This document shows, piece by piece, positions 21,901 to 64,000 of a stretch of 64,000 nt of DNA. Numbering within the stretch: the stretch's first letter is position 1; the number at the start of each line of letters is the position of its first letter. The notes beneath the pieces were generated by a model. It searched no databases. It was not told where the DNA came from and saw nothing but the letters and a program-made list of their open reading frames with translations. Location: IMG/VR virus record IMGVR_UViG_3300040811_001959. One strand, given 5' to 3'. Made by a program: the position numbers and the translations under genes. The DNA comes from a virus. Its lineage: Duplodnaviria; Caudoviricetes.

Positions 21901-23556
21901 AGTTTTTATCAATTAAGGGTGTTTTTAAATGAAAGAGAATTAAAACATACAGACGAATGGACTTATAGTGCTGCAGAATCTTTTGATCCTTTAATACCAG
22001 ATGATCAGCAAGTAGGAAGTATTGTATATCTTGTTGAAGGTATTGGCAACATTGGAGATACATTACGCATTTATATTAATGCATGGGAAGACAGTGTAGA
22101 GTCCGGCGGTGATTATAGATATGGGTACTATGAAAATGGCGAATTTACAGGAACTCCTGGAGTGTTGCACATCAATAAACCTTTAAACGAAGGAGACCTA
22201 ATTAAAGTCTATCAATTTAGCAATCATGATAGTCAAAGGATTGATTGGCAAAGTTTTGATATGGTTGAAAGGACAAAATTAAGTCCTGGGAATATTGATC
22301 AAAGTTATACAAATATTGTTACAGATTTAAATCAAATTTACGTTGCATTTACTTTGCAAAGTGATAAATTTTACGCAATTTATAGGAATGGGTTTAGGGT
22401 AGATGATCAATTTTATGGTACTACTACCCAAGGTAATCAAGCAGCAGAAATTCAAACACCTATTGGTAATGGTACAAATTATTTAAATTTTAATGAAATA
22501 GGATTAAATGTTTTAGCTGGCGATATTGTAAAAGTTGAAGAAATAAATGCTCAAATTAATATAGACCAAGATTCGCAAAATTATTATGAATTTAAACAAT
22601 TACGTAATGGATTGATTCCTTTAAATTATCCTGCTGTAACAGATAGTTATGTGTTTGTAGCTGTAAATGGAAAAATGTTGCATGCCAGTATTGATTACTA
22701 TGTTACAACTGATAAAATGCATGTAAAATTAGCGCAACCTTTGCTAGAGGACGATGTTGTACAAACAATACATTTTAGTAATCCGCAACAAACAAAGAAA
22801 TTTGCATGGAGACAGTTTACTGATATACTTAATAGGAATCATTATAGCATTATAGACGGGCAAAAGAATGTTAGATTAAGACAAGATTTACATTGGTATG
22901 ACAAAGTAATTGTTGTTGATAACGAGGAAGCATTACCTGCTCCTACTTTAGAAAGTAAGTATCCTGGTGTAATATTTATAAATGGCGAAAGGATAGAGTA
23001 TAGAGCAAGACATGGTAATATATTACAACATTTAAGAAGAGGAACATTAGGAACAGGTGTAAAAGATATATATTATTCTGGAACAGAAATTTATGATCAA
23101 TCAATTGATAAGCTTTTACCTTATAAAGATGAAACAATTGTTGTAAATATAGTAGCAGATGGCAATTCGAATGAATTTACATTAGATTTTGTGGCTAATT
23201 CTGTTAACGAGTTTGAAGTTTTTGTAGGAGGTGTAAGACTTAGAAAAACTCCTTTAGAATCATATGAACTTGACACTGTAAACAGAATAAATTATGGAAC
23301 AAACAATGAACATATATCACAGGACTCTCCCGAAGGAGATGTAACATTACCTCCTGAATTTGTTTTAGAAAAAAATATTTTGCGTTTAACAAAAATAGAC
23401 GAAGTTGGAAACAATGTTTATCCCTCAGCAGGAACAGTTATAACCATAATTAGAAAAATTGGAAAAATATGGACAGAAGCAGGACAAAAGTTAGTTGATA
23501 GCGAATCGCCTATTAGTAGAATGATTAGATCAGTTGAAGCTGATTTACCAAGATAA
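6991..23556 (+). CDS. Giant (5,521 aa) virion structural protein, probably gp7-like wedge/adhesin with FG-GAP-like blades, CBM5/12-like repeats and GxGY beta-repeat domains
   Basis: Uninterrupted ORF with RBS AAGGA, in the gp7 position after gp6. FG-GAP-like blades (e.g. EFGYSFALSSDGNTLAIGAPLFD..GKVYVY), W/F-xxxxxY-xxGDIV repeats, GYGYKTVPTVRFEGGGGSGVKAVA-type repeats, and repeated VYxNG...DY and ADGxTNxFxL modules. Confidence 0.7.
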   Translation: MAYKDNQTDPALPADNLPRRETVNHLPKYFRTDFNKKFLNATLDQMVQPGVVEKINGFYGKKNAKAFDANDNYINDITPDRQNYQLEPITISKDNLNNINFFADYNDYINFIKIRHGNLDHSVLNSQEYYSWNPHINWDKFINFREYYWLPNGPETITISGQSKEVVSEYTVSLRDNDDNFTYIFTPDGLTNNPSLTLYRGQTYRFDVNTPNYPIAFVSRITFTPGEEIDAEYNSSLIYTNGIKKIDRDGLEITADFVDDGIIEFVVPEVAPDNLFYISKDDPNLSGIIKIFDVVENTEINVDKEILGKKSYLTSGGFHLSNGMKIEFAGNVFPEEFSTGEYYVEGVGEKIELIDTNRLKLSSLFVDDLEIPFDDNGFDQYPYSEALGYAVSKDYITINRSSIDGNLWSKYNRWFHIDVIEQSLKINNQAIEINQNLRAKRPIIEFEKNLKLFEFGTVAKNDVWLVDDVTTDVFSTIEGSIGYNIDGVDLTEGIRILFLADNDILVKGKIFKVKFITVNNNTQITLIEEPDTNPIENENVLVREGKTYKSKSLYYDGNEWKICQQKNNVNQAPLFDMYDYNGVAFTDSNVYPFSQFSGNKIFSYKESSNTIDVELGFGLSYRNIVNSGDIIFEFNLLQDSFPFTNNNNLVTEVKTDIGFLRKYSSLTDYVSVNGWSTASTKTQQVVIRQYVVEDVTNLFEIDVYDNYIDDKELWLRVYVNGNIKELDKDYFLERNVNDDLFINFVIPIKLKDNIIIKTKYKSIKNDNGYYELPYSLERNPLNENVTDFTLGEVIDHGSTIVEESTSFRGKFPGKSNLRDLGNLSIYGRKFLKHTCPLNLSIYHLLDKDVNVLAAIDNANDLYGKFKRQFVEIANDLGYNGPIKEHVDLILDEYTKGKNNKDPYFFSDMAASKGVIVYKEIIVDTDQRYFQLSKIHNNNMLGNKAVSVYRNGKQLIYGQDYTFNTEGFVDFFGFKKVDDIIEICEYDNTNGSYIPPTPTKLGLYPKYIPEIFIDNTNNSFITEENKGPYKFYGLQKNEPNDEDILGWFYPLYLDYDLACISDENNECVIITFAGLNRVFYMPKSDQNKGAQDSIYFDEWNEGNVYIQGHDGSLVYAYKDFRDELILEIEKRIYNNIKINYDTNLFDINEIIPGRYRNTNITRSSLNDPLISDFIKWTRFINVEYAMHQYFDVNNSFTYNYNGSKLDNYEVSPGWWRQIYTYLFDTDRPHTHPWEMLGFSIKPIWWDDQYGSYPYTSDNLLMWSDIEKGIIRQPNFFINKKYTRPGLTKIIPVDNKGNLVSPSKSGVIKYYDKKLVKKSFVFGDGSPVETVWRRSSNYRFSLIKSLILCKPSYVFGTGFDRANQVRNDSEQIIYLPTQNHFRLQDLVFPYVENENFYTSGLINYIAENQNTLFFNNYENYRNILVSLNNQISFKVGGFTDKDKFKLILDSRTPLNEGNVFIPLENYDILFLKSYPIDEYVYSGVVIEKQAEGWYISGYDTAYSKFKYIPIIPRDADTTINVGGISKSYVTWEAGKTYAIDAIVKVGDDSFYRCKITHVSGDNFDNSKFVTLPRLPIVGGVDAKTRRYFSQNVEELSYGTLLYDIQEVVDFLYGYGHYLKTVGFTFDRFVESQLEVADWSYAVKQFLFWTTQNWGAGSLITVSPGADRLNFSTNYGSVGNVIDTSQGYSIYKADGTVIKTSEVNFNRDNDNNFSVTTTGNDGIYFIRIPTNYAEHVVIIDDRTEFNDIIYEKNSGYRQERIKVIGYRTNAWKGSLDIPGFFYDDAKVKEWQQYVAYNVGDIVKYKEFYFVAKNKIDAVENFDFTDWKKLDTLKEAGLYTNFDYRIEQFKDFYDLDSDNLDVEQQKMAQHLIGYQKRNYLQNIINNDVSQFKFYQGFIQDKGSKNSLTKLFDVLASADKDSLEFYEEWAIRQGVYGAVDNFYEFDFKLNESKFRLTPQPVEINVNNKDNIDLIYRINPTEAYFSDGNSSSPFPSFNNTKTYVKHAGYVSPSDVDYTLADYTDLLKVNLNDIKVNEYFWIGNDPNGWNIYQYKNYNKFIKFEVIGTDNLALEFEFDIEDDFQIGQIVGVSNVEKITFVGQDSTVIANDYVSSFSGVFQITDIQINKIICALTDLALLVQINTDSLQGDTTGIVSIFSSVRVSNLQGLEQLVLKDYQLNKKIWVDEDADKNWSVYQINHEFKLSTSVTNPAKNITSFGNKISINDRNTVLAIADPLQNDGIVYVYTRPSINQNWKLFQILSPEEPDSESFNIGDSEENAGIIFVITNNSVENINLVYKNGEKINEANYSINVENNQVIMTSAILADDTITISFLKHIIPYKFGASLDVENNSNHIIVGAPDASYLKTRIKGTFDPTMNYSSGDIVNYEVQDIGVKNYYRALVDILPESSAQEFNAFFNYSKWLYDNNLYFENSYSFPLLFTGTYNEREETTDHLIIRIPSTVYNGIKVDDQIVLHWNTLTNANQTQLELVERQPFDGLYSQIDNVFLNNKHTILYKFSKIIKVANSAISLSKGQQISSTTANAEIEQAISIGNSNDFIIYLKNIQGSLLQVDSIKVGIQIVGNYELIAPLEEESIVQDEFAGFIAISTPAYTTTYNRTDSGRGLIIRELITEKSPDQNLIYSNILEYDNASLIRILSYEDYNLNNLGEYNPITKNLRYFLIRASKTLTDTYVDDSINFYFNQLPKTVSVLKVRNTRFTTKPVVVKGETLRQKNNSLATVTIFSDTVEIDPATINFSNPVYLIQVQNVSETSFNFIDDLVGSESGELFCRPIEEPVVPKLDTLEEIGLNTNLLINNNLDIWNTWDGYIIYQENRTDSNGLPYVPYAKYIEDGINLTSFDGNNPNERVGQTIREINESGNPTNNTAEVMYVQRIGNNRLILFVNNVQGNWRLGQDQDQPAQLQMDAHPTGQDIFSRLNIFNFDREFGVSVNVILPSEDVGKFFVIDYGSEIQAIFDQVTAQPKNILINQEYWFFNNESIQGLPRLAAYPNNNSVVWERIYSLSIDDTGTASTYEKEGVVFVYKKIGAKYQLVKRLLGPDRQNNYKWGSNLKIGNFQNVSKTFILADNPKRLYFVKDGNDNGIVYNWDYATNKKYKGVYNENETYFTGDIVFVPRNVTENVFSSDIGIFDGTLFESLTNGSVNVLKNNSYEINTDYWKLADELIDYVGFVPNNSGNVQLDSTDISTLSVDGLIKFGLNFDISDNAEVLAVLIKYDNTNKNKISIFRNDQGYYRFSQIIEADTPEIEFGYSFALSSDGNTLAIGAPLFDTKRINVGKVYVYKLENTKFVLKQELSSPNNEIEEMFGITVDINDNLIAVGSANADIKVETTYDSNDTIFDNGLTTFKYTKSDKGAIFVYDDINGHYVYGNKIIYDNPYANSYDLGENFVLKNKFLYVSDPNYTNENGTIGYVLNYSNIENKLYDNISRQKQTVDLSKVKKIFLYNTKTKEIIKYLDYVDVLQGKLPGPAEQNISYKLYYDPAIYSTGGSSVVVDPTTAWTTENVGKIWWDLSTVKYYYPYINDISFSTNFWNKQFLNTNVDLYEWVESPLLPLDWNELSETNEGYSLGITGRAKYTDSYTEKSIYNNVTDRIEKKYYFWVKDAKNIPDLDNRTISAYKLQTLMKDPLNEGYEFVSLISDNEFAIYNCEKFLNDKDVAISFQIYKDTDQRINTHFHYDIITEDIETNKIKENLSVKWIDSLVGYDLYGRSIPDISIGEKYRYGNLTEPRQSWFVNRQQALKEYVQRINRVLKENLIVDSKNLKNLYLKDEYPLESSNQYDLIVDNLDALNLYGIAKAEQASIDITVENGKVVSARIINPGRGYIKTPTFTVIGQGSNLELNFTLNAIGSIVNVDIVNAGENYNNNASVEIRKFTALVLNDETINGKWALYERNYTANSWNRVRSQGYDTRAYWKFIDWYSTGYDSTTPINFIIDFSYQLNSINDTIGNIVKINTIGSGGWLLLKKVDNQDNVDYSINYETIGRENGTIEFLNTLYDPYAAYYNFDLKSFDISFYDDLPTTEVRIIANAIKDDIFVDDLAIEYNRLFFAAIRYVLSEQGYVDWLFKTSFIRVKHNVGNLRKDVTFNNDNLPSYEDYVNEVKPYKTKIREYISSYEKIDNNPLLTADFDLAPAYVDRDKRILPQQIKVFGDVLYGVSDEHMTYPNKNWLDNCYYVVTDIKISYSGYGYKTVPTVRFEGGGGSGVKAVAFLGENGSIVNIEVIDEGSGYLQAPQIYIDGETYNDFAPARVSVILGKPLVRSTLTKIKFDRIAKTIFYSNIDESYTEITSGSKYIFDLYWPMSLLPKDVNVYVNGEKLLFSRYKYENVLDNTKSYTRYLGRVTLVDVPSNYSEVKIEYKKDINLLPALDRLNYYYSPIENQFGNTPNQLLDGIDYGGVEVKSFGFGNTTGWDSHAFFVNQYDTYDTTFEDHVNTVGKNLLYNSNIGYKIQINWTNFAKAVNALVKGDSVEIDNHTLFYSIFNVNQLGEPVTDPLDGTSILNVLDELVSELVLDQNGNVVLDENGDASYQLTPRITIRSVEQILLYGLNSVDLEELAIYNIETQIIPIISTLTGSQVENLINETNSVLNDVKLIFKTPLEENVQYNVYYNGLRIDDINFVTDPTNITNPNATLATIIGDGLQQELILRDIVSDYQTDDVVILRKPTSDGSFLPTDLDYDTLLVGGNLDYTNAKGIESADIVVDGDNFVTHTTSKGPEENVPGLVQDTLDIKVYERPIVGSSNIFSMNYITDGINNTYNIGNYPLSARNLIVKIDKEIVTNYSVNSNKTITFNTLLPAGKRVNITTLDYSGFDVLDVDTIECILSTNIFVVNARWEENLQSEVSVNGKEIDYVIVPSNTEFSDSSNNILIKFGKNINVGDVVRYVIYSNKEGQEKQKFSTTYIDNFIADGSTNIFELTKLPELQQPAEWYTMVLVNNKLLNPGYTETFILTDSREYNLKLHQVPLRTVSFYQLRVFLNERELKHTDEWTYSAAESFDPLIPDDQQVGSIVYLVEGIGNIGDTLRIYINAWEDSVESGGDYRYGYYENGEFTGTPGVLHINKPLNEGDLIKVYQFSNHDSQRIDWQSFDMVERTKLSPGNIDQSYTNIVTDLNQIYVAFTLQSDKFYAIYRNGFRVDDQFYGTTTQGNQAAEIQTPIGNGTNYLNFNEIGLNVLAGDIVKVEEINAQINIDQDSQNYYEFKQLRNGLIPLNYPAVTDSYVFVAVNGKMLHASIDYYVTTDKMHVKLAQPLLEDDVVQTIHFSNPQQTKKFAWRQFTDILNRNHYSIIDGQKNVRLRQDLHWYDKVIVVDNEEALPAPTLESKYPGVIFINGERIEYRARHGNILQHLRRGTLGTGVKDIYYSGTEIYDQSIDKLLPYKDETIVVNIVADGNSNEFTLDFVANSVNEFEVFVGGVRLRKTPLESYELDTVNRINYGTNNEHISQDSPEGDVTLPPEFVLEKNILRLTKIDEVGNNVYPSAGTVITIIRKIGKIWTEAGQKLVDSESPISRMIRSVEADLPR

Positions 23557-54509: not shown

Positions 54510-55310
54510 ATGAATATCGAAAAATTAAATCCTTTTGGACTATTAGTAAACGATCTAAATCTATATAAAGACTATAATTTTCTAGTAGAAAATTTAGAAA
54601 TTCTTATTTGGAAAAACGGATTTGTTTGTATAAAGAAACTAGATACGCATTGGAGTGTAATTAACAATATAGCTCATATATTAGGAAATGTTGCTGTTGC
54701 ATCACCTGTTGATCATCATGAATGTATCTTTGTAGGACAAATTACAGGACAAAAAAATGAGGACGGAACACCAAAAGGACGTATGGGTAAATCTACTGAA
54801 ATAGGTTGGCATAGTGATAATTGTGTTACCAAAACTCTTGCTCCATTTATATTGTTCCAAGGTATAGAAAATTTACATAATGGAACACAACAGTATCTAA
54901 GCAATAATATGGTTTTTGCTAGTTTAAGTGAAGCTGACAAAGATGAACTTAGACAAGCAGAAGGAAATTTTTATTTTAATCATGACGTGTTCCAAAATGA
55001 TTTAGAGGACTTAATAAAGCCGCATAGTAATTGGAAAAAAATTGTTATAGAAGACCCTTATGGAAATGAAGGTTTATTTTTTCCACATTTATTTTGTACA
55101 GGAATTAAAGGAACATCTAATAATAATTACTATTTTAATTTACTTCAAACAAAATTTAAAGAAGCAAAAATTTATGAACACAAATGGGATATTGGTGATT
55201 TGTTTATAACAGAAAGTTTATTTACTCAACACAGACGCCCGCCGACCGATAATCCTAATAGATTACTATATAGAGTTAATTGTGGTAAGGAGTATAGATG
55301 GACAAAATAA
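54510..55310 (+). CDS. TauD/TfdA-family Fe(II)/2OG dioxygenase
   Basis: LNPFG...GFVCIK, IGWHSD, FASLSE, HKWDIGDLFI..SLFTQHRR...RLLYR. Confidence 0.8.
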   Translation: MNIEKLNPFGLLVNDLNLYKDYNFLVENLEILIWKNGFVCIKKLDTHWSVINNIAHILGNVAVASPVDHHECIFVGQITGQKNEDGTPKGRMGKSTEIGWHSDNCVTKTLAPFILFQGIENLHNGTQQYLSNNMVFASLSEADKDELRQAEGNFYFNHDVFQNDLEDLIKPHSNWKKIVIEDPYGNEGLFFPHLFCTGIKGTSNNNYYFNLLQTKFKEAKIYEHKWDIGDLFITESLFTQHRRPPTDNPNRLLYRVNCGKEYRWTK

Positions 55311-55978
55311 TTACATATATGGATCTTGTTAATCTTTACATTCCTAACAAAGAAAAAGTTGCACAAGAAATATTATCTTTACCAGATGATGATTGGTACT
55401 GGATTAAATTTCATGGTGCATGGATGTGTAGTTTATATAATGCTAGGCCTGATGTTGGCTGGTTTGAACAATACAGTTTTAATCCTAATTTACCAAAAGA
55501 ATCAGCATCTGTTGTTGCTTTACGTGACTACATTTTTCCTTATATTGGTGGAGTTGGGAATGTTACGGTTATTAAAACGAAACCTGGAGAAATGTTGAAA
55601 GATCATGTGGATAGTGCGCCAGCAGAAGTTGGTGGCATGCAACATAAATTTAGATGGGTTGTTAAAGGCAAAAAAAAGAATACACTTTATTTTTTTGATG
55701 AAAATAGTAATAAACATTTCTATGCACCACAGACTGATGCATATGTTATAAACGGTTCGCATCCCCATGGTATGATTAATACAGGTAGTGATATCAAATT
55801 GACTGTTTGTATAGGATCTCCTTGGAAACCTAACAAAGAATATCATAGTAACATTGAAAGTTTATTGTATACTTGCATACCATTTCCAAAAGAAATTAAA
55901 AAAGAATGGAACGATCCTAGATTCTATAATGAAAATAAAATAGGTTTAGGTGTTACAGAGTTTAAGCAGAAGCTTTGA
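55298..55978 (+). CDS. AspH-like/DSBH Fe(II) oxygenase
   Basis: VTVIKTKPGEMLKDHVD (HxD)...KFRWVV...YVINGSHPHGMIN. Confidence 0.62.
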   Translation: MDKIITYMDLVNLYIPNKEKVAQEILSLPDDDWYWIKFHGAWMCSLYNARPDVGWFEQYSFNPNLPKESASVVALRDYIFPYIGGVGNVTVIKTKPGEMLKDHVDSAPAEVGGMQHKFRWVVKGKKKNTLYFFDENSNKHFYAPQTDAYVINGSHPHGMINTGSDIKLTVCIGSPWKPNKEYHSNIESLLYTCIPFPKEIKKEWNDPRFYNENKIGLGVTEFKQKL

Positions 55979-58145
55979 AAGGATTTAGTTGGACATTAAT
56001 ATTTTTTGAAATTTTAAGTCTTGCACTAGAGACATAATCTTTTACATTAATATCATCTTCTTGCAAGATATTTTCAAGAATATCTTCTGCACTTTCGAAG
56101 TAAGTATCTTTAGGATAGAATATTCCTATTCTACTTATGTAATGATTTGTACCTTGTTTATTTGTGTATGTTCCTTCGGGATAATAAAATGCATTTTGTT
56201 TATTAAACATAAATTCATGTCCACCTGCAATATAATATAAGAATACTTCCCGAGTAACAGAATGTCGAGAGATCTTAGTATTTCCAGCAGTTTCTATATT
56301 AGCATCATAAGTTGTAGTGTATTTTAACAGAATACCTTTTGTAAAATAATCAATCCAACTATATTTTGTTGTAAAATTAGTTGTAAATTCAGTTTGTTCT
56401 CCGTCAATAAGAATATTTTTATTAAATTGTATAAGGTCTAACAATAACTCTTTATCTACTTGTTTATAAGTTTCTAAGAAAAACTTTGTAATTTGTTCGT
56501 AAAAATGATTTTTTCTTTCTTTTGTGCCATGTAAAAATAACCAAGCATTTGAATATCTGTGAAATTTTAATTTGTCTTTTTGATAAGGAAACCAAAGAGG
56601 TACATTTTTTTGTCTATCACGAACAGCATCTTCTTTACTTGCTAACAAAGTATCAAAAAAATCTTTATCGCCTTTTGTTTGGAACCAGTAAATAATTTTT
56701 TCAATCATATCGCATGCTTCGATATTATACTCATTTTGTAAATATCTTCCTACATAAAATATTGTTCTGCCTAACCATAATATTTGAATTAAATCACGTA
56801 CATGTCTAATATATCTCATATCCTCTCTTGTTATTGTACTTGTACTTCCAATAATATAAGCAAATTCTTTTTCATCTTGATATGGACTAGGTCCTTGTTC
56901 AAATTCGTCCCATTCTAAATTGTAAATAGTTTCATGTTTTTTTAAACTTATTTCACTGTTTTCTAACCATGCTAATTTGTAAACATTTATTTCTAGTGGA
57001 TTAAATTTTAACAATTTGCTCATTCCTTGTAGAAAACTTTCTTTTGTTTCTAACGGCATTCCCATAATCATTTCATGGTAATAAGGTAATCCCTTTTTTG
57101 TAAAGTTTTGTGCAATCCATTCAAAATCTTTTGTAATACTAAGGTTATCTCTTCTAATTGCTTGTAATGTAGGAGTATGCAAACTTTGTAAACTAAAAGT
57201 TGCTCCACTTCTACTAAAATCAAATTTTTCTAATATTTCTGCAATACGCAGGACTCTTTCTTTATTATTTTTTGCATAGGTAATTGCTGTTGTATGTAAC
57301 TTAGGATTAGGATGATTTAATTTTGCTTTAATTAAATATTTTGCAATATCTAAATCTCTATGTAATATACCAAAATTTGCATCTGATAACATTATTTCGT
57401 GTACATTTCCTACATACCAATCAATTTCGTCTTTAATACGTTTCATGCTAAATCGTCTTAATTTTTCTTCTAGTCCCCAATCACAGAATGTGCAAGTATA
57501 AGGACAACCTCTATTAGTTTCTAATACACCTTGTATTTGTATATCTTTAGGTAATTGTGCAATTAAATCATCATATAGTCCCAATGCACAAGCACTAGGA
57601 TAATCTAGTTCTGCTTTATGATTTAAATATCTCCTTATAGACTGCTTGCTAATAATTTTTCCATTTGCAGTTTTAGTAAAACAGTCATTAAAATAATGTG
57701 ACTTGTATATTGTCTTTTCGGCAAGTATTTCTCTTAGTATCATTTCTAATGCTACTTCGCCTTCGCTGTTAACGTAATATTCAAACTGTGGATTATCTGA
57801 TACAAATTTTTCAAAACGTTTAGGGTCTTGCGGAACTTCATTTCCGCCTACGATTATTTTTACATTAGGATATTTTTCTTTTATTGCTTTTGTAAGTTTT
57901 ATAGACCGGTTTTTATTCCACATATATAAGCTAACAAGAATCACATCAGGCGCACCTTTATGGTCAATTTCTGTAAGTAATTCCATAACACTTGTTTCAG
58001 GTTTATGATACGTTGCCCACCCTGTAAAATTAATATTTCTATACACATCATCTACCGTAGATATGTAACTTAATAGCGTTCCAATACTTACAGGTAAAGT
58101 AACGGTGTAGTGAGCACTTAGTTGAATACCAAAAACGTTAAGCAA
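55962..58145 (-). CDS. Cobalamin (B12)-binding radical SAM protein, class B methyltransferase-like architecture
   Basis: B12 domain VILVSLYMWN...IIVGGNEV...EGE; LETNRGCPYTCTFCDWG; LSDANFG; FSLQS. TTG start with GGAG 6 nt upstream. Confidence 0.88.
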   Translation of the reverse strand: MLNVFGIQLSAHYTVTLPVSIGTLLSYISTVDDVYRNINFTGWATYHKPETSVMELLTEIDHKGAPDVILVSLYMWNKNRSIKLTKAIKEKYPNVKIIVGGNEVPQDPKRFEKFVSDNPQFEYYVNSEGEVALEMILREILAEKTIYKSHYFNDCFTKTANGKIISKQSIRRYLNHKAELDYPSACALGLYDDLIAQLPKDIQIQGVLETNRGCPYTCTFCDWGLEEKLRRFSMKRIKDEIDWYVGNVHEIMLSDANFGILHRDLDIAKYLIKAKLNHPNPKLHTTAITYAKNNKERVLRIAEILEKFDFSRSGATFSLQSLHTPTLQAIRRDNLSITKDFEWIAQNFTKKGLPYYHEMIMGMPLETKESFLQGMSKLLKFNPLEINVYKLAWLENSEISLKKHETIYNLEWDEFEQGPSPYQDEKEFAYIIGSTSTITREDMRYIRHVRDLIQILWLGRTIFYVGRYLQNEYNIEACDMIEKIIYWFQTKGDKDFFDTLLASKEDAVRDRQKNVPLWFPYQKDKLKFHRYSNAWLFLHGTKERKNHFYEQITKFFLETYKQVDKELLLDLIQFNKNILIDGEQTEFTTNFTTKYSWIDYFTKGILLKYTTTYDANIETAGNTKISRHSVTREVFLYYIAGGHEFMFNKQNAFYYPEGTYTNKQGTNHYISRIGIFYPKDTYFESAEDILENILQEDDINVKDYVSSARLKISKNINVQLNPFKASA

Positions 58146-58671
58146 AAAATTCTCCGTTACAATATTTTTTGTATACTTCTTTATATGATTCTTTTAAGTC
58201 AAATTGTAAACTATATCTATTATATTCTTTATTGCAAACAGCATGCAAAACTTTGGCGTCAAATACAATTACCTTACCTGTATAATCTATATCAAACCAT
58301 TCTGATTTATCATTATGATAAAATTTAATTGGCTCGTATACCTCATTAGTATATATAGGAAAGATTACAGCAGTATAGCGTTCTGTATCTCTATGGATAG
58401 TAGGCCCATTATATGGAGGAAATTTTAATAGTTGAGTTGTTGTGTAATCAAGGTAAGGAAAATTTAGACTTTTACGTATTGTTTTTATAGGTTCTTTATT
58501 TTGTAAATCCGCATAATACCTATATGTTACACCAGTAAAGTTATCAATAGTGTATTTCGTTTCATCCCATCTGGGCGGAATATAACTATCCCAGTTGCCA
58601 ATATTATAAACTATGTTAGCTAATTTTTTAATATCATAATTAAATTCAAATGTAAAACATACTTTATTCAT
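58138..58671 (-). CDS. Small Fe(II)/2OG-type DSBH oxygenase-like protein
   Basis: LKFPPYNGPTIHRD (HxD)...AVIFP...VFDAKVLHAVCN..R.SLQ. Confidence 0.62.
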   Translation of the reverse strand: MNKVCFTFEFNYDIKKLANIVYNIGNWDSYIPPRWDETKYTIDNFTGVTYRYYADLQNKEPIKTIRKSLNFPYLDYTTTQLLKFPPYNGPTIHRDTERYTAVIFPIYTNEVYEPIKFYHNDKSEWFDIDYTGKVIVFDAKVLHAVCNKEYNRYSLQFDLKESYKEVYKKYCNGEFFA

Positions 58672-59395
58672 TAAAAACTACTTCAATCGTTTTTTGGGTT
58701 GCTTCTTCATTATATTTACAATAAACTCCACGTTCTTTTTTATAATTGAGTGTATTTTTGTGCCATGTATCTATACCAGGTTTACTAAAACTATGATGAG
58801 TTTCAGGCCATATGGTTATTTTACAATTTGTTAATTTTTGATAATCTAAATCATAAAAAGCTGGAGTCCAATTATCTAATTCTCCTACAAATATATGAAC
58901 ATTGTGATTGCGTATTTGATATATTTCTTGCGGTAATACAGTTGGTTTTAAACCTGGATACAAACAATAACTGTTATTCCAATAATTAGGATTATCATTT
59001 TGTTGTAGCCATAATGCTGCTGTACCACCATCTGAAAACCCTACTGCTTTACTATTAGTTATATCTGCGAAAGGTATAATTTTTTGTTTATTGAGAAGGT
59101 ATTCGTATGTCTTTATTTGATCCTTAGCACGTTGTTCTGGATCAACTCTAAATTCTTCCATACTTTCCCAGTTTTGTTTGTATATGCCTCTGTTGCTATA
59201 ACTGTCAACAATAATAACTGTATAATCTAATTTAAATGCATGGTTAATCCATAAATCTTCATTACTACTAATTCCTCCACTGCCGTGTATCAACCAAACG
59301 CAAGGTTGTTTTTTAATATTTTGATTATTTGTTTTAATCATAACAGCAATATCATCAATGGAAAAAAAAGAGGTTTTACAAACTGTTACAGTCAT
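58664..59395 (-). CDS. Dienelactone-hydrolase-like alpha/beta hydrolase
   Basis: LIHGSGG, GFSDGG (GxSxG nucleophile elbow), GELDNWTP (acid), HHSF (His). Start moved to 59395, giving an ATGA overlap with the upstream gene. Confidence 0.75.
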   Translation of the reverse strand: MTVTVCKTSFFSIDDIAVMIKTNNQNIKKQPCVWLIHGSGGISSNEDLWINHAFKLDYTVIIVDSYSNRGIYKQNWESMEEFRVDPEQRAKDQIKTYEYLLNKQKIIPFADITNSKAVGFSDGGTAALWLQQNDNPNYWNNSYCLYPGLKPTVLPQEIYQIRNHNVHIFVGELDNWTPAFYDLDYQKLTNCKITIWPETHHSFSKPGIDTWHKNTLNYKKERGVYCKYNEEATQKTIEVVFNE

Positions 59396-59853
59396 TTTAG
59401 TCTCATTACATATTGATATTCGCCATAATGCATTAGATCGTGCGTGACAGTCCAATTATATTCGCTTTTTTTTGCAAAATATTCAAATAATTTTGGATTG
59501 AATTCTCTACTAAGCCATATGTCTTTGTAGCCCAATGACTGTGCATATTTTACACTTTGGGATAATGTTTCTAAACCTCTAGCTAAATCATCGCTTTTAG
59601 ATCCAAAGTTATATGCTCTATCTCTAGTATGCCTACTCATTATTCTAATAGACCCATTGTATTGCGGACGTTCTATACCTGCACTATAATAAATCATTTT
59701 ATTATTATCATACCCCATTCTAGCAAATTTCGTATGTTCAAAAAGAGGTCTTTCTAAATAATTACTTGCTAACTTATGATCTGCGTTTTTAGAAAATAAT
59801 TCTTTAATTTTATTTATATGCAATTCTATCGGTTCTAAGTGCCATGTAATCAT
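59392..59853 (-). CDS. Possible GNAT-fold acyltransferase
   Basis: IRIMSRH...GLETLSQSVKYAQSLGYKDIWLSRE resembles GNAT motifs A/B. Start moved to 59853 (ATGA overlap). Confidence 0.4.
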   Translation of the reverse strand: MITWHLEPIELHINKIKELFSKNADHKLASNYLERPLFEHTKFARMGYDNNKMIYYSAGIERPQYNGSIRIMSRHTRDRAYNFGSKSDDLARGLETLSQSVKYAQSLGYKDIWLSREFNPKLFEYFAKKSEYNWTVTHDLMHYGEYQYVMRLK

Positions 59854-60461
59854 AGGTCTTGAATGTCTTCTACACCATTTAAGCTCCACATAAGAGCAAC
59901 TCGAGGGTTGTTACTCATGTTAATTACAGCATGTGGATATCCAATGTTAAGGAAATAAGCATTACCGTTTTCTAGATTATATGCTTCTAATTTCTCTTCA
60001 CGTTTAAATAAATTAATAACTTGCTTATCTCCGTAAATAGGTACAATACATCTGACAGCATAATTTACATTATAATCAACATGGAATGGAATATTTTTTC
60101 CTGGAGCAAGTTTTGTTATTCTAATTCTGCTTGCTGGTGCTTTAAATTGTGTAATTATTTTTTCGAAATAACTGCCTTTGTAATCTTGTGTAGGAACATT
60201 ATATAAATGTTCCTCCTTACGTATTAGTCTTTCTTTAATACTAGTAGTATAAGGTAATACCTCACTAGGTGTAGTTAAATTAATTTGTTCGAAGTTGTCA
60301 TAAACATGATCAACTAATTCCATATGATTATCGCATAGCATTGGATTTGCTGTTCTTACATCCACAAATTTTTCTGCGATGTTGTTAAAAGCAGTTTGTA
60401 ATTTTTGTAAATCAATATTTAAATTATATTTATGAATACTAGGTAAGCATTTTTTGTTCAT
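59850..60461 (-). CDS. AspH/LpxO-family 2OG oxygenase
   Basis: RIRITKLAPGKNIPFHVD...RCIVPI...YFLNIGYPHAVINMS..PRVALM. Start moved to ATG 60461 (AGGA 7 nt upstream). Confidence 0.8.
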   Translation of the reverse strand: MNKKCLPSIHKYNLNIDLQKLQTAFNNIAEKFVDVRTANPMLCDNHMELVDHVYDNFEQINLTTPSEVLPYTTSIKERLIRKEEHLYNVPTQDYKGSYFEKIITQFKAPASRIRITKLAPGKNIPFHVDYNVNYAVRCIVPIYGDKQVINLFKREEKLEAYNLENGNAYFLNIGYPHAVINMSNNPRVALMWSLNGVEDIQDL

Positions 60462-61230
60462 TATATATTCCTGATAAACAGAGTCTTGCTGTGGTTCCGC
60501 TACGTCTAAATTTTTTATACTCTTCTCTAGTGCTTGTAGCAAGCCAAACACTATCACTAGGAACAATTTCTAATTCTTTACAAATAGTTTTTTGTCTATT
60601 ATTTAATAAATTATATACAAAGTCAACATCAAAATTTTTGATAATAGCTTCACTAACTTTATTCGCAAAATAGTTATAATACTTTGCACTATGTATTAAA
60701 GTATCTAATTTAAGATCTTTTTGTTTTGTAAATATCCAACCAGTTCTTATATTTCTAATCCCAAATGGTTTAGAAAAACTATAAAATACATATTCAACAT
60801 TTTTAGGCAAGTTTATTTTTTTTATTTTAGTACTACCAATGTATGCTAAATCTACTACAGTAGGCGTGTTCTCAGGAATGTTTATAAAATTTCCATTTAT
60901 TGCACTTGGAACACTTATGTACTTAATACATTTATCGTACTTATCTCCTTTAGGTTGTATCCATTGATAATCTCCTTTGTCCATGTAGACAGTCCGGTTA
61001 TCTTGATAATACCACCAATTTAAGCCTTCAGTTATCCCGTTCATTGGATAAACATAAAAGTCTTTTAAATTTACTATAGGTTGCAACCAATCAATAATAT
61101 TTGTTTTATATTTGTCTACACCATCAAAGTCTGGTTTAATTTTTTCTATAACTTTCTTTACTTCGGGTAAAACATTTGTTCTTACTGCAAGACTTTGTGC
61201 ATGTAATACATTATTATAATGAATAGTCAT
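60439..61230 (-). CDS. PLP-dependent fold-type I enzyme (class I/II aminotransferase, HisC/CobD-like), short
   Basis: NGITEG, GDYQW, SVPSAINGN, VVDLAY (PLP-Asp), YSFSKPFG..NIRTGW (Schiff-base Lys). Confidence 0.72.
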   Translation of the reverse strand: MTIHYNNVLHAQSLAVRTNVLPEVKKVIEKIKPDFDGVDKYKTNIIDWLQPIVNLKDFYVYPMNGITEGLNWWYYQDNRTVYMDKGDYQWIQPKGDKYDKCIKYISVPSAINGNFINIPENTPTVVDLAYIGSTKIKKINLPKNVEYVFYSFSKPFGIRNIRTGWIFTKQKDLKLDTLIHSAKYYNYFANKVSEAIIKNFDVDFVYNLLNNRQKTICKELEIVPSDSVWLATSTREEYKKFRRSGTTARLCLSGIYNEQKMLT

Positions 61231-62191
61231 AGTGAACTCTATCTTGGGTTTTATACCAAAATGTTGCTCTTAATAATTCTCTTTCTACGTGATCTGGAAC
61301 ACCGTGGTCTCTACGGTGAACACCAGTTAATTGATCTGCTATAACAATATCAGTCTCTTGCCATTCGTGTATATAGTGATACTTAGTGTCTATTAATAAA
61401 TCTTGTTTTAATTTATTGTAAATTTCTAAAGCATCGTCTACAGGATTATAATTTTCGTCAACAATATTTTCTATATTTATGTAATTAAAAAATAATCCTA
61501 CTGCACCAATAGGATGTCTTGGCGATAATCTATTGTATCCTTCGAATTGGTACCTTCCTTTTTTGTATAAGTGACTATTAGCAGGATCAAAATTTACTGC
61601 ATTATGTATGGATTGTGTTTTCGCATTTTCATTTATTTGATGATTTAAATTATGTTCTAATGTATCTTTTGCTGCTTTGCCTGCTAGTGCAAGTCCCGTT
61701 CCTGCTCTGTGTAAATTAATAGCTCTTTTTTCAAATGTTTTATTTTCATCATATGTCCATTTCGTATATAAAGTTTTATAACGTTTTTGTAAATCTTTTG
61801 GCAGTGTTTTAAAGTACGGTATGGTATTAGAATATGTAGTAGGACTGCATTCTTTTTGGTCGATCGGAATCTTATGACCGTATATACTTACAACTTCGTG
61901 ACTGTCTTGTGTATATAATATATTTGAATGCCAGTCTATATCATGCTTGCCAAATAAACCTTTATGCCCGTGCTCGTCAACTGCCTGATTATTTACACGC
62001 CAAAAAATTGGAAATTCTTTATAAGCACACCAAACTTTAGGGTGTTGATGATAACCTACATCTAATAAAAAGTTATTGTATTGTGACAAACTCATACCGT
62101 GGTCTCGCATTACAACAATACCAACATCTTTTAATAGTTTAACAATTTTTTCTCTATCTGTACTTTTTGTAAATGCTACTACTTCGCTCAT
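61214..62191 (-). CDS. TauD/TfdA-family dioxygenase with atypical HxN metal motif
   Basis: GIVVMRD, GLFG..DIDWHSN, YFKTLP..L, HEWQETDIVIADQ...VHRR...RELLR. Confidence 0.75.
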   Translation of the reverse strand: MSEVVAFTKSTDREKIVKLLKDVGIVVMRDHGMSLSQYNNFLLDVGYHQHPKVWCAYKEFPIFWRVNNQAVDEHGHKGLFGKHDIDWHSNILYTQDSHEVVSIYGHKIPIDQKECSPTTYSNTIPYFKTLPKDLQKRYKTLYTKWTYDENKTFEKRAINLHRAGTGLALAGKAAKDTLEHNLNHQINENAKTQSIHNAVNFDPANSHLYKKGRYQFEGYNRLSPRHPIGAVGLFFNYINIENIVDENYNPVDDALEIYNKLKQDLLIDTKYHYIHEWQETDIVIADQLTGVHRRDHGVPDHVERELLRATFWYKTQDRVHYDYSL

Positions 62192-62710
62192 CTAATTCTC
62201 TAATAAATATTCTATATTTTGTTTAAATTGAATAGTACAACTTACTCTTGGATAGTTATCATGGTTCATGCATACTTGATGCGGTTCTAATACACGCATT
62301 GCAACCGCTTTGTTTAAAACAAAGTAATCCACTTCTTCTAAATTATTAGTATCTAATTCGTAAGCTGTGACACCGTTTGATTGTTTTATCTTACTTACCT
62401 TACCTGTATTTTTGTAATATTTTGTTACAGTATCATTACAATTCATAATAGGAAAGGTTATACGAACAGGTTTTTGGTCAGTGTCTATATGTACATTTCC
62501 CTGACGTGTATGCGAAACGAATATACCTGCAAATTCAATATCCCATTCGAATAGATTTTTGACTTGTGGAAAGTTTTCTAAAAGATAATCTGTAGCAAGT
62601 CTCCAATTTCCCTCACCTTTTTTAATCAGATGCGGATTTTCTAGCAGGTATTTTTTAATATCTTCTGCTAAATTTTTGTACTTTATGTCTAGATATTTGT
62701 AATATATCAT
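62192..62710 (-). CDS. Small Fe(II)/2OG-type DSBH oxygenase-like protein
   Basis: GNVHIDTD (HxD), RITFPIMNC, MRVLEPHQV....RVSCTI. Confidence 0.65.
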   Translation of the reverse strand: MIYYKYLDIKYKNLAEDIKKYLLENPHLIKKGEGNWRLATDYLLENFPQVKNLFEWDIEFAGIFVSHTRQGNVHIDTDQKPVRITFPIMNCNDTVTKYYKNTGKVSKIKQSNGVTAYELDTNNLEEVDYFVLNKAVAMRVLEPHQVCMNHDNYPRVSCTIQFKQNIEYLLEN

Positions 62711-63282
62711 ATAATATTTACTTTGTGATGGTCTTTATGATTGCCTTCCCAAGGAGCAATAAAATTTAGCCATATGTTATTGATAGGACCTTCTGCATTG
62801 TGACCCCATAAATTTAATGCACCAAACCCAATATAAGAAAGTAAATAAATTATGCCTAAAACAACAAATGCTTCAATGCCAAAGAGAAATGTAAATAGTA
62901 GTAAGCTTGTCCAATACAAAACATGTCTATGTTTGTGAAAAAACATAACCCTTGGATTTCTAAGCATATCGTTTAAAAATCTACGTGGAATATGGTCAAC
63001 ATGCCATAAACTAAAAAGTATTACATACCAAGAGTGTAAATTCTTGTTGTGCGGGTCTAAATCTGTATCACTGTATGTATGATGCATACGGTGAATTCCT
63101 ACCCATGTTAGTGGCGATCTGCCACCACATAGTAAACCACAATATAAAATTACTATTTCTTGCCAAGGTTTTGCATAGAATTCATGATGAGAAAAGTAAC
63201 GATGATATCCATATGTAATACCAATTGAAACAATTAGGATATACATTACATAAGCAAATAATATTAAGTATAAAATTTCCAT
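62707..63282 (-). CDS. Membrane fatty-acid desaturase (delta-9-like), compact
   Basis: His boxes GYHRYFSH, HRMHH(TYSD..DPH) and EGNHKDHH; hydrophobic segments at the N-terminus and before box 3. Confidence 0.85.
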   Translation of the reverse strand: MEILYLILFAYVMYILIVSIGITYGYHRYFSHHEFYAKPWQEIVILYCGLLCGGRSPLTWVGIHRMHHTYSDTDLDPHNKNLHSWYVILFSLWHVDHIPRRFLNDMLRNPRVMFFHKHRHVLYWTSLLLFTFLFGIEAFVVLGIIYLLSYIGFGALNLWGHNAEGPINNIWLNFIAPWEGNHKDHHKVNII

Positions 63283-63287
63283 ACAAA

Positions 63288-63320
63288 TATTTATTTGTAT
63301 TATGTGAGTAGTTACTTATT
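63288..63320 (-). promoter_or_regulatory. Two late-promoter-like motifs (AATAAGTA at 63320-63313, AATAAATA at 63295-63288) heading the minus-strand operon
   Basis: Minus strand reads cAATAAGTAactactcacataatacaAATAAATAtttgtATG. The CAAATAAATA 10-mer is identical to that at 3521-3530. Confidence 0.45.
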
Positions 63321-63325
63321 GCTGA

Positions 63326-64000
63326 TTAAGCGATTGTTGTGTCTTGATTTGCTATTACTACCCAGCCAGTTGTACCATATATTAATGTTATAGTTTGATT
63401 TATAGCAGTAAATGTAATTGTAGTACCATTTGCAAATGTAGCTGGCTCTACTGTTCCATTGCCACTACTTCCTACCATGCTTAATATTTTAAGTTGACCT
63501 GCTGTGCCGTTTGCAAGAGTATATGCATCAGTTCCTGTTGTTGTAATTTCCGTAACTAAGGTTTCTAGGTCAATTGTACCTGGACCAGTTAAAGTTTGCA
63601 CACCGCCAATATACCCGCCAGCTGCTGTTATATTTCCAGCAACATGTAGTTTTGTAGCAGGAGCATAAACACCAATACCAAGATTTCCACTGTTGTTTAA
63701 AATTAATGTATTGCTTTCAGGAAAGGATCCTTGACTATCACCAATAACCCAGTACATCGATGTACGTCCGCCACCGAAAAATGATTCTACTATTTCACCG
63801 TTTATATCATATCTAGAGAAATATATTCGACCTCTGTCACTGTTTTGCGATGACATATCAACTATATCTTCAGTTGCTATTAAATTTAGTATAGGCCCGT
63901 TTGTTGGTACTAGAATTTTTATGTCAGCAGTCGGCGTCATTGTAAGAGAACCAGTTAAGTCACCCGAAAGATTACCAGTAACATCACCAGTAACATCACC
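63326..64000 (-). CDS. Tail-fibre-like protein, 5'-truncated by window edge
   Basis: Frame stays open from 63940 to base 64000, adding GDVTGDVTGNLSGDLTGSLT. Contains GNLGIGVYAPATKLHVAGNI (fibre repeat) and a Thr/Gly-rich C-terminal beta domain. Confidence 0.7.
   Translation of the reverse strand, partial: GDVTGDVTGNLSGDLTGSLTMTPTADIKILVPTNGPILNLIATEDIVDMSSQNSDRGRIYFSRYDINGEIVESFFGGGRTSMYWVIGDSQGSFPESNTLILNNSGNLGIGVYAPATKLHVAGNITAAGGYIGGVQTLTGPGTIDLETLVTEITTTGTDAYTLANGTAGQLKILSMVGSSGNGTVEPATFANGTTITFTAINQTITLIYGTTGWVVIANQDTTIA
63974..64000. repeat. 12-bp tandem repeat (ACCAGTAACATC x2 plus ACC) encoding GDVT repeats
   Basis: Directly visible at the window end; coding repeat of the fibre gene. 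Confidence 0.8.

Follow-up and report, generated by a model that had tools for sequence, protein, structure and literature searches.

Nine tightly packed genes on the minus strand (g1 to g9, in the order of transcription) occupy positions 55962-63282 of the 64,000-nucleotide stretch of IMG/VR virus record IMGVR_UViG_3300040811_001959 that was analysed here and is called the window throughout. The source is an uncultured marine T4-like phage. A core of these genes is co-inherited among related phages: the desaturase g1, the pyridoxal phosphate (PLP) enzyme g4, the AspH-like hydroxylase g5 and a GNAT protein (either of the g6 family or of a second family), usually together with the oxygenase g8 and the cobalamin (B12)-dependent radical SAM enzyme g9. 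The reading that we favour, at a probability of roughly 0.4, is that the nine genes represent, in one lineage, a phage-specific module that is conserved, and that this module modifies an acyl chain and attaches it to an amine, yielding a hydroxylated, unsaturated and methyl-branched N-acyl product. Such a product would be a compound of the lipo-amino-acid or acyl-amine type.

The family assignments of all nine proteins had been proposed in an earlier reading of the sequence alone (the original prediction). Eight of them are backed by profile or structure searches, while g2 is recognised by its motifs and a weak profile alignment only.

Co-Inheritance of the Core Genes

Searches with the g6 family led to 43 phage loci, 27 of which remained after dereplication (g6 less than 95% identical in pairwise comparison). 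The g1 family and the g5 family are each encoded in 27/27 of these loci, g4 in 25/27 and a KedN5-type B12 radical SAM enzyme in 18/27; several of the loci lacking one of the latter genes are cut by contig ends. Identity of g6 across the linked loci is about 53-88%. Two gene orders are encountered: desaturase, PLP enzyme, AspH and GNAT genes in succession (the quartet), or desaturase and GNAT genes with the rest on the convergent arm.

The full nine-gene order is found in a 182-kb IMG/VR contig, with protein identities of 74-87%. Locus L054 keeps eight of the nine genes, with identities of 30% for g1 and 46-74% for g3-g9. In the same locus, an extra gene (L054:5411-7285) separates the AspH gene from the GNAT gene; its product, of 624 aa, has an Asp_Arg_Hydrox domain at the C-terminus and a large N-terminal part of no assigned family, and the rest of the operon is syntenic. 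The gene set of the original prediction therefore recurs in other genomes as a core (g1, g4, g5 and g6, usually with g8 and g9) and not as all nine genes, and since this core co-occurs elsewhere the prediction is not overturned on this point.

In L052 and in the cultured T4-like Pelagibacter phage Mosig, which is the closest deposited relative of the window, desaturase, PLP and AspH genes are present without g6, and the AspH gene has as its neighbour a GNAT gene matching Pfam Acetyltransf_1, with 47% identity between the two copies. In L052 this gene takes the position of g6 after the AspH gene. The presence of a second GNAT where g6 is missing suggests that the acyltransferase step is required, and the replacement seems to be the best sign that acyl or acetyl transfer is integral to the module.

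These patterns bear on the view that there is no common pathway at all, and that independent auxiliary metabolic genes, such as a vFAD-like membrane-fluidity desaturase and several oxygenases, have merely gathered in a hypervariable region. The content of the island is indeed highly variable between phages, g2, g3 and g7 come and go, and active viral desaturases of the DesC-like kind are known to occur on their own (PMC5776448). However, the invariable linkage of g1, g5 and g6 at such divergence, its persistence in two gene orders, the overlapping stop and start codons and the exchange of a missing GNAT for another GNAT all speak for joint inheritance. In addition, g1 is far from host-like DesC, and the window protein falls short of Pfam FA_desaturase. 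We consider a chance gathering of this kind highly improbable.

The GNAT-Fold Protein g6

The signature gene of the module, g6, represents a new, phage-restricted family. The protein has no match in Pfam (neither an OlsB-type nor any other acyltransferase model), PHROG or NCBIfam, and its profile has none among PDB sequences. Its AlphaFold 2 (AF2) model is of high confidence (predicted local distance difference test score, pLDDT, 95) and gave 192 GNAT matches at E <= 0.001 in Foldseek. In VIA, the top match had a Z of 12.0 (1xeb), with LasI at 11.2 and FeeM at 10.2; 147 chains were found at a Z of at least 8, and all 50 listed rows (Z of at least 9.5) are GNAT-type folds. The GNAT call of the original prediction is supported by structure prediction. 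In the beta4-alpha3 loop, R77, F83 and G84 are invariant, and the classical CoA motif Q/R-x-x-G-x-G/A is not present.

The family is a highly isolated one, with 213 proteins (cluster representatives at 90% identity) recovered from metagenomes. Among 1.84 billion representatives, the profile found one full-length cluster, and the family is absent from 50,697 GenBank phage records. In 185,579 species genomes there is one match, on a 6.9-kb contig of a metagenome-assembled genome that carries the same quartet (desaturase, PLP enzyme, AspH, GNAT); this contig is probably binned phage DNA. Homology between the g6 family and the Mosig acetyltransferase was considered, and the hhalign result (E 0.0043, probability 8%) is too weak to call.

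The Desaturase g1

Profile searches place g1 with the stearoyl-CoA desaturases (SCD). The family profile matches mouse SCD1 (4ymk) at 8.8e-21 and human SCD1 (4zyo) at 3.7e-20, and g1 homologues carry PF00487 in precomputed annotation, while window g1 alone is below the Pfam FA_desaturase threshold, so that the family profile is needed. The three His boxes (HRxxxH, HRxHH and HxxHH) as well as N157 and H161 are invariant in 22 g1-family sequences, and the invariant di-iron ligands aligned with those of SCD1 are H27, H32, H64, H67, H68, N157, H161, H182, H185 and H186. All characterised stearoyl-CoA/DesC desaturases are known to act on fatty-acyl chains.

The protein is unusually small. The full four-helix membrane domain with a cytosolic cap (about 270-360 aa) is not present; g1 aligns over SCD1 residues 78-280 only and has one N-terminal transmembrane segment and one hairpin. 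Among the nine proteins, g1 alone has transmembrane segments (residues 1-26 and 121-159). The other eight are soluble and without a hydrophobic N-terminal segment, as judged by a hydropathy scan and not by a signal-peptide predictor; this distribution fits a cytoplasmic chemistry that ends at the membrane. A complex prediction for g1 and g6 from family alignments scored 0.00, which says nothing either way about binding.

Some relatives show further genes around the desaturase. In L029 (10464-11216), L032 and L035, the GNAT gene is directly followed, about 550 nt past g6, by a gene for a further desaturase paralogue of 250 aa with 26-27% identity to g1. In L053 (201-2559), a reverse transcriptase (RVT_1) gene directly precedes the g1-family desaturase and may belong to a diversity-generating retroelement close to fibres of the Mtd type. 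In L052 (3754-5808), the desaturase gene is separated from the Mtd_N fibre gene by one for a 684-aa Peptidase_S8 (subtilisin-like) protein.

The PLP Enzyme g4 and the Hydroxylase g5

The AF2 model of g4 (pLDDT 90.7) has a trimmed class I/II aminotransferase fold. Foldseek returned at least 500 matches at E <= 0.001, all of the aminotransferase type, with TAA1, HisC, CobD and C-S lyases at the top. The SxSK, D-x-A-Y, N and R motifs are kept, with S151, S153, K154, D127, A129, Y130, N114, R162 and R249 invariant or nearly so. These include the Schiff-base Lys (K154, aligned with the lysine motif of TAA1), the pyridine-nitrogen Asp (D127), the Asn N114, and the phosphate and carboxylate Arg residues (R162/R249). 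The Pfam match to PF00155 scores 17.5 bits, under the cut-off of 19.7, and the protein, at 263 aa as against 330-430 in the matched structures, is short of the full two-domain size.

Two more specific roles were considered for g4. A part in cobalamin linker synthesis was raised by the CobD match and by the cobS/cobT-like genes found upstream of the fibre in relatives, but CobD matches no better than HisC, TAA1 or C-S lyases. A sphingolipid-type route (serine palmitoyltransferase and ceramide synthase) is so far unsupported: the best sequence and fold matches of g4 include no alpha-oxoamine synthase.

The hydroxylase g5 matches Pfam Asp_Arg_Hydrox (PF05118) at 2.9e-6, with 27.7 bits against a cut-off of 22.6. 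It is the most conserved protein of the set, with a mean column identity of 71% over 17 sequences. The closest solved relative is the caprazamycin beta-hydroxylase Cpz10 (7v4f), which is a weak match (E 0.0044). LpxO and OlsC, to which g5 had been likened in the original prediction, are membrane-anchored; g5 has no transmembrane segment and its family matches no NCBIfam model, so that the likeness is not upheld.

The Cobalamin-Dependent Radical SAM Enzyme g9 and Its Partner g8

The gene for g9 starts with TTG, with GGAG 6 nt upstream, and the resulting N-terminus is kept in orthologues. The protein has both expected Pfam domains, B12-binding (PF02310, 9.6e-8) and Radical_SAM (PF04055, 3.3e-9), and contains CxxxCxxC. 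The best NCBIfam match is the KedN5 family at 2.5e-57, which leads the second best, BchE (4e-12), by 45 orders of magnitude; among PDB sequences the matches are TokK (2.5e-56) and CysS (5.7e-35). The KedN5 score of 194.5 bits is far under the family cut-off of 700, and g9 is therefore a relative outside the curated family rather than a member. The same assignment holds for six B12 enzymes of other quartet loci, with KedN5 as the best match for all (1e-42 to 1e-51). The hopanoid methylase HpnP had been put forward as a model for this enzyme, but among the listed NCBIfam matches HpnR appears only at 1e-4, and HpnP does not appear. Enzymes of the TokK/CysS type add successive methyl groups to small molecules tethered to a carrier or to pantetheine. 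A Streptomyces relative of g9 (32% identity) is encoded in a nonribosomal peptide synthetase (NRPS) cluster with AMP-binding and CmlA-type enzymes.

The oxygenase g8 carries the motifs H93-x-D95, H144 and RxS, and its nearest named clusters in the Atlas are viral Asp_Arg_Hydrox (0.95, 189/256 features shared). It travels with g9: its gene lies directly upstream of a g9-type enzyme in the window and in L019, L052, L053 and L054.

Accessory Genes

The three other genes, g2, g3 and g7, are lineage-specific additions that are seen in close relatives only. The protein g2 has no Pfam or PHROG match. It contains an HxD...H...RxS motif (H74-x-D76, H144, R155-x-S157) and aligns weakly with the AspH5 profile (E 0.028) with the motifs in register; its Atlas score of 0.89 is a lead only. 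In L054 its homologue (49% identity) lies on the convergent arm.

A Pfam TauD domain (PF02668, 5.4e-14) is present in g3. At residues 88-90 it has H-x-N, as have several sister clades in related phages, and the sequences concerned (WHSN, WHAN or WHCN) align with the canonical WHSD of the paralogue at 54510-55310 (17 island TauD-like proteins compared). Judging from this alignment, the H-x-N may be an altered metal site.

The hydrolase g7 has a Pfam DLH match (2e-6; 28 bits, with the cut-off at 21) and a GFSDG nucleophile motif, and a PDB search found no solved relative by sequence. Among relatives it occurs in L009, L010 and L054 only.

Layout and Genomic Setting

The features are listed in Table 1. 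The nine open reading frames (ORFs) fill their block with no gaps, and the coordinates and all junctions are as the original prediction had described them: 4-nt ATGA overlaps at g1/g2, g5/g6 and g6/g7, a single abutting pair (g2/g3), and overlaps of 17 nt (g3/g4), 23 nt (g4/g5) and 8 nt (g7/g8 and g8/g9). As it had also stated, the block contains no glycosyltransferase gene.

Table 1. Genes of the minus-strand block and the two genes that flank it
Feature	Position	Strand	Length (aa)	Assignment	Place in module
g1	62707..63282	-	191	Minimal membrane di-iron desaturase, SCD1/DesC (delta-9) type	Core
g2	62192..62710	-	172	Probable double-stranded beta-helix (2-oxoglutarate/Fe) oxygenase	Accessory
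g3	61214..62191	-	325	TauD/TfdA-family dioxygenase, H-S-N replacing HxD	Accessory
g4	60439..61230	-	263	Trimmed fold-type I PLP enzyme, class I/II aminotransferase-like	Core
g5	59850..60461	-	203	Soluble AspH-like (PF05118) hydroxylase	Core
g6	59392..59853	-	153	GNAT-fold protein	Signature gene
g7	58664..59395	-	243	Dienelactone-hydrolase-type alpha/beta hydrolase	Accessory
g8	58138..58671	-	177	AspH-like/cupin oxygenase	
g9	55962..58145	-	727	Cobalamin-dependent radical SAM enzyme, KedN5/TokK/CysS clade	
Upstream fibre gene, 3' part	63326..64000	-		f9 family (Mtd_N-type); f9 hidden Markov model (HMM) 2.5e-21	
Last gene of convergent arm	55298..55978	+	226	HxD...H oxygenase-like	

The G+C content of the window is 24-36%, and about 29% across most of the 64,000 nt. 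Genes are on the plus strand up to 55978, and both strand and GC skew flip over 55962-64000, the skew being negative precisely where the nine-gene block lies. A scan for sigma-70 promoters and terminators gave no excess above shuffles, and no terminator-like site was found between the convergent arms (g9 and 55298-55978). Metagenomes of estuary, seawater and salt-marsh origin, produced by many different studies, contain nearly identical DNA. Metatranscriptome run X24 gave short, low-depth contigs only, over g1, g2, g3 and g6; it is not counted as evidence of expression because DNA carry-over is possible. Elsewhere in the window, a single plus-strand ORF (6991-23556) encodes 5521 aa upstream of tail-collar fibre genes.

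The Fibre Gene Upstream

The block is immediately preceded on the same strand by a fibre gene, of which the window holds the 3' part; g1 begins 43 nt after it. Full-length fibres of this family, f9, carry PF18454 (Mtd_N). An f9 fibre directly precedes the desaturase in 12/27 loci by clustering, or 13 if the truncated fibre of the window is included by HMM, and an f9-type fibre also directly precedes the module slot in L051, L052 and L054. The 43-nt gap before g1 contains no exact T4-type late box (TATAAATA). In the window as a whole, TATAAATA seems to be avoided, with 8 copies observed against 26.8 +/- 4.7 expected from shuffles; one copy is inside g6 (59811-59818, minus strand).

This arrangement raises the possibility that the enzymes modify a virion protein post-translationally, most likely the upstream Mtd_N fibre or another fibre of the island, by hydroxylation, methylation or acylation (possibly lipidation), and thereby tune adsorption or stability. 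Tail-collar proteins have been proposed as substrates of linked beta-hydroxylases (Iyer et al., PMC2938197). Such a role would agree with the recurrent position behind the fibre, with an operon that has no exact late box of its own, with the protein-hydroxylase family PF05118 to which g5 belongs and with the SPASM/twitch radical SAM genes of the convergent arm. However, about half of the loci have the quartet without an f9 fibre directly upstream, and the ORF list shows no free small, precursor-like ORF in the tightly packed operon. Moreover, no action on proteins is known for SCD desaturases, class I/II aminotransferases or TokK/CysS/KedN5 methylases.

Locus L051 provides a further argument. 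It is syntenic with the window (cobS-like gene, DUF2201, Mtd_N fibre, g9 orthologue, with the convergent arm kept), and between the fibre and the g9 orthologue (52% identity) g1-g8 are replaced by a complete TRAP transporter (DctP, DctQ and DctM) and an AMP-binding ligase of 373 aa (L051:5501-9410). This cassette points to small carboxylic-acid chemistry or substrates in the slot, and the transporter and ligase imply a small imported acid rather than a protein. To our knowledge, a phage-encoded TRAP transporter has not been described. On balance, modification of a fibre is an unlikely function for the module.

In most relatives, the fibre in front of the module is itself preceded, at a distance of a few genes, by AAA_5 (CobS/MoxR-like) and DUF2201 (CobT/VWA-like) genes (L006:3960-6543, L009:565-1713, L051:1-2290, L052:1-689); a connection of these genes with the cobalamin-dependent enzyme is conceivable. 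A family found in 17 loci, f17 (L013:13684-14235), is a Sulfotransfer_2 (PF03567, 5.6e-7) gene that recurs in quartet islands together with an SDR-like gene and a methyltransferase; all three are absent from the window.

The Convergent Arm

The original prediction described the operon as self-contained, which it is not, as indicated by the run-on from the fibre gene, the 17-nt overlap of g9 with 55298-55978 at their 3' ends (55962-55978) and the occurrence of the same families on either arm in relatives. In the favoured reading, the module works alongside the convergent arm of radical SAM and oxygenase genes. The AspH5, PLP4 and B12 radical SAM families are on the opposite strand in one common layout. 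The homologue of 55298-55978 stays after the B12 enzyme in L002-L005 and L009. Along its length (31.2-56 kb), the plus arm holds many radical SAM genes as well as AspH, TauD, nitroreductase, methyltransferase and sugar-related genes, including CTP_transf_3, genes of the Asn_synthase type and the SPASM/twitch radical SAM genes.

Given this content, both arms (31.2-63.3 kb) could form one glycoconjugate or glycolipid pathway that decorates the virion or the surface of the infected cell. The plus arm would then contribute glycosyltransferases, a cytidylyltransferase, an amidotransferase and radical SAM sugar tailoring, and the minus arm the N-acyl or lipid part. The physical overlap of the arms and the mobility of AspH5, PLP4, the B12 enzyme and g2 between them are in keeping with this, as are the sugar-type genes of the plus arm and the glycosyltransferase genes found next to the module in L053. 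Amino-sugar pathways also commonly include GNAT and PLP enzymes. However, g4 resembles amino-acid aminotransferases such as TAA1 and HisC, with no sugar aminotransferase among its best 50 listed structure matches, and a desaturase has no known role in glycan synthesis. The minus arm contains neither a glycosyltransferase nor a nucleotide-sugar enzyme, and in loci such as L015 the quartet is in a bounded operon without glycosyltransferase genes. We regard a joint glycan pathway as improbable.

A Possible Pathway

If the module does assemble an N-acyl compound, g4 would make or interconvert an amino acid or a 2-oxo acid; an alpha-carboxylate substrate fits because the C-terminal Arg is conserved. 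The hydroxylase g5 would act on this amino or 2-oxo acid, or on the acyl chain. The GNAT protein would N-acylate the amine from acyl-CoA or an acyl-carrier thioester, the membrane desaturase g1 would put a double bond into the acyl chain, and g9 with g8 might provide one or more C-methyl groups and a hydroxyl. In the lineage of the window, g2 and g3 could carry out further oxidations and the hydrolase g7 could release or trim the product. Production would probably fall in the late phase of infection, along with expression of the fibre genes, and the compound may end up as a free metabolite, a host membrane lipid or a component of the virion surface.

Several points weigh against the assembly of an N-acyl compound. 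Firstly, the order of the steps and the final acceptor are pure inference. Secondly, the window operon contains no gene for an acyl carrier protein or an acyl-CoA ligase. Thirdly, LasI, FeeM and plain acetyltransferases are within one Z unit for g6, so that its fold cannot tell an acetyltransferase from a long-chain acyltransferase. Fourthly, a distant g6 relative in L049 keeps AspH, TauD and the B12 radical SAM enzyme without a desaturase or PLP gene, which shows that the GNAT step does not always need a fatty-acyl desaturase. Fifthly, g3 is without the canonical carboxylate ligand of the facial triad (HxD/E...H). Finally, the island is always found among fibre genes and beside SPASM/twitch radical SAM genes of the peptide-modifying kind, and the Pfam family of g5 (PF05118) is named after protein hydroxylases.

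Relation to Known Systems

The closest parallels are bacterial systems for aminolipids and N-acyl amino acids, namely the OlsB/OlsC/OlsE ornithine lipids, the FeeM-type N-acyl amino acid synthases and the LuxI-type N-acyl homoserine lactone synthases, where a GNAT-fold N-acyltransferase, a PF05118 hydroxylase (OlsC, LpxO) and a membrane di-iron enzyme act on one acylated amine. LasI and FeeM are among the structural matches of g6, although not above ordinary acetyltransferases. The phage proteins differ in that g6 is not matched by the sequence models of any of these families, g5 is soluble and small, and g1 is of the SCD type and has no match to OlsE-type FA_hydroxylase in Pfam or PDB profile searches; in addition, the phage set includes a PLP enzyme and a B12 radical SAM enzyme. 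Of the analogies drawn in the original prediction, that with OlsE does not hold, and for OlsB the fold alone does not discriminate. Its idea of an acyl-amine pathway survives in outline, even though the comparisons with OlsC/LpxO, OlsE and HpnP fail.

For g9, the best matches over the B12 and radical SAM domains are enzymes of similar length from specialised metabolism: TokK and ThnK (carbapenem), CysS (cystobactamid) and KedN5 (kedarcidin). Unlike these, g9 is phage-encoded and has no NRPS, polyketide synthase or beta-lactam genes nearby.

Among phage genes, the cyanophage desaturases vFAD-I/II are DesC-like and have been shown by experiment to be active; for a viral DesC-like enzyme related to g1, the delta-9 activity was measured with C16 chains (Roitman et al. 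2017, PMC5776448). Like g1, they are delta-9-type membrane desaturases encoded by marine T4-like phages. The paper (PMC5776448) describes them as close to picocyanobacterial DesC and as single auxiliary metabolic genes, which sets them apart from the minimal g1 with its linked GNAT, AspH and PLP genes. A further parallel is provided by the dioxygenase/halogenase clusters of Syn9-type cyanophages and by fibre-linked oxygenase islands, for which peptide or secondary-metabolite substrates have been proposed (Iyer et al. 2010, PMC2938197). They share with the window the tandem arrays of diverse 2-oxoglutarate oxygenases in T4-like marine phages. The text of the paper names no desaturase, and it reports aminotransferases and radical SAM enzymes for bacterial neighbourhoods and not for the phage clusters (PMC2938197), whereas the present module has a defined, co-inherited core.

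The nearest deposited counterpart is in Mosig (EXVC030M, Mosig_00072-00081, MT647606). One block by the fibres encodes an AspH protein (69% identical to g5), an aminotransferase (46%), an FA_desaturase (32%), TauD and an N-acetyltransferase. The block differs from that of the window in lacking a g6-family GNAT (the acetyltransferase is Acetyltransf_1-like instead) and a B12 radical SAM enzyme, and in having extra peroxiredoxin, FMN reductase and methylase genes; it has been annotated only. No paper discussing it was found. The original claim that the combination was undescribed in a phage therefore has to be narrowed, because a partial set has been deposited.

Implications for Marine T4-Like Phages

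Ever since the first cyanophage genomes appeared, large islands of oxygenase and radical SAM genes have been recognised next to the fibre genes in marine T4-like phages. We know of no product or substrate that has been assigned to such islands so far. One of them is now reduced to a small co-inherited core that is widespread and small enough to express, and with phage Mosig on HTCC1062 there is a partial counterpart in a cultured system.

A more specific proposal, which must be regarded as doubtful, is that the phage makes a specialised N-acyl lipid or signal (a lipo-amino acid, a compound resembling N-acyl homoserine lactones or a branched unsaturated aminolipid) by means of a mini SCD desaturase, a phage-only GNAT and an iteratively methylating B12 radical SAM enzyme. 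Such a compound might reshape the envelope of the host, keep out other phages, serve as a signal or, joined to the adjacent fibre, provide a lipid anchor. If a lipid or acylated metabolite is indeed made by the phage, this would extend virus-directed chemistry by a new class, in bacteria that are very abundant in the ocean, and would provide unusually small SCD-type desaturases and PLP enzymes for enzymology.

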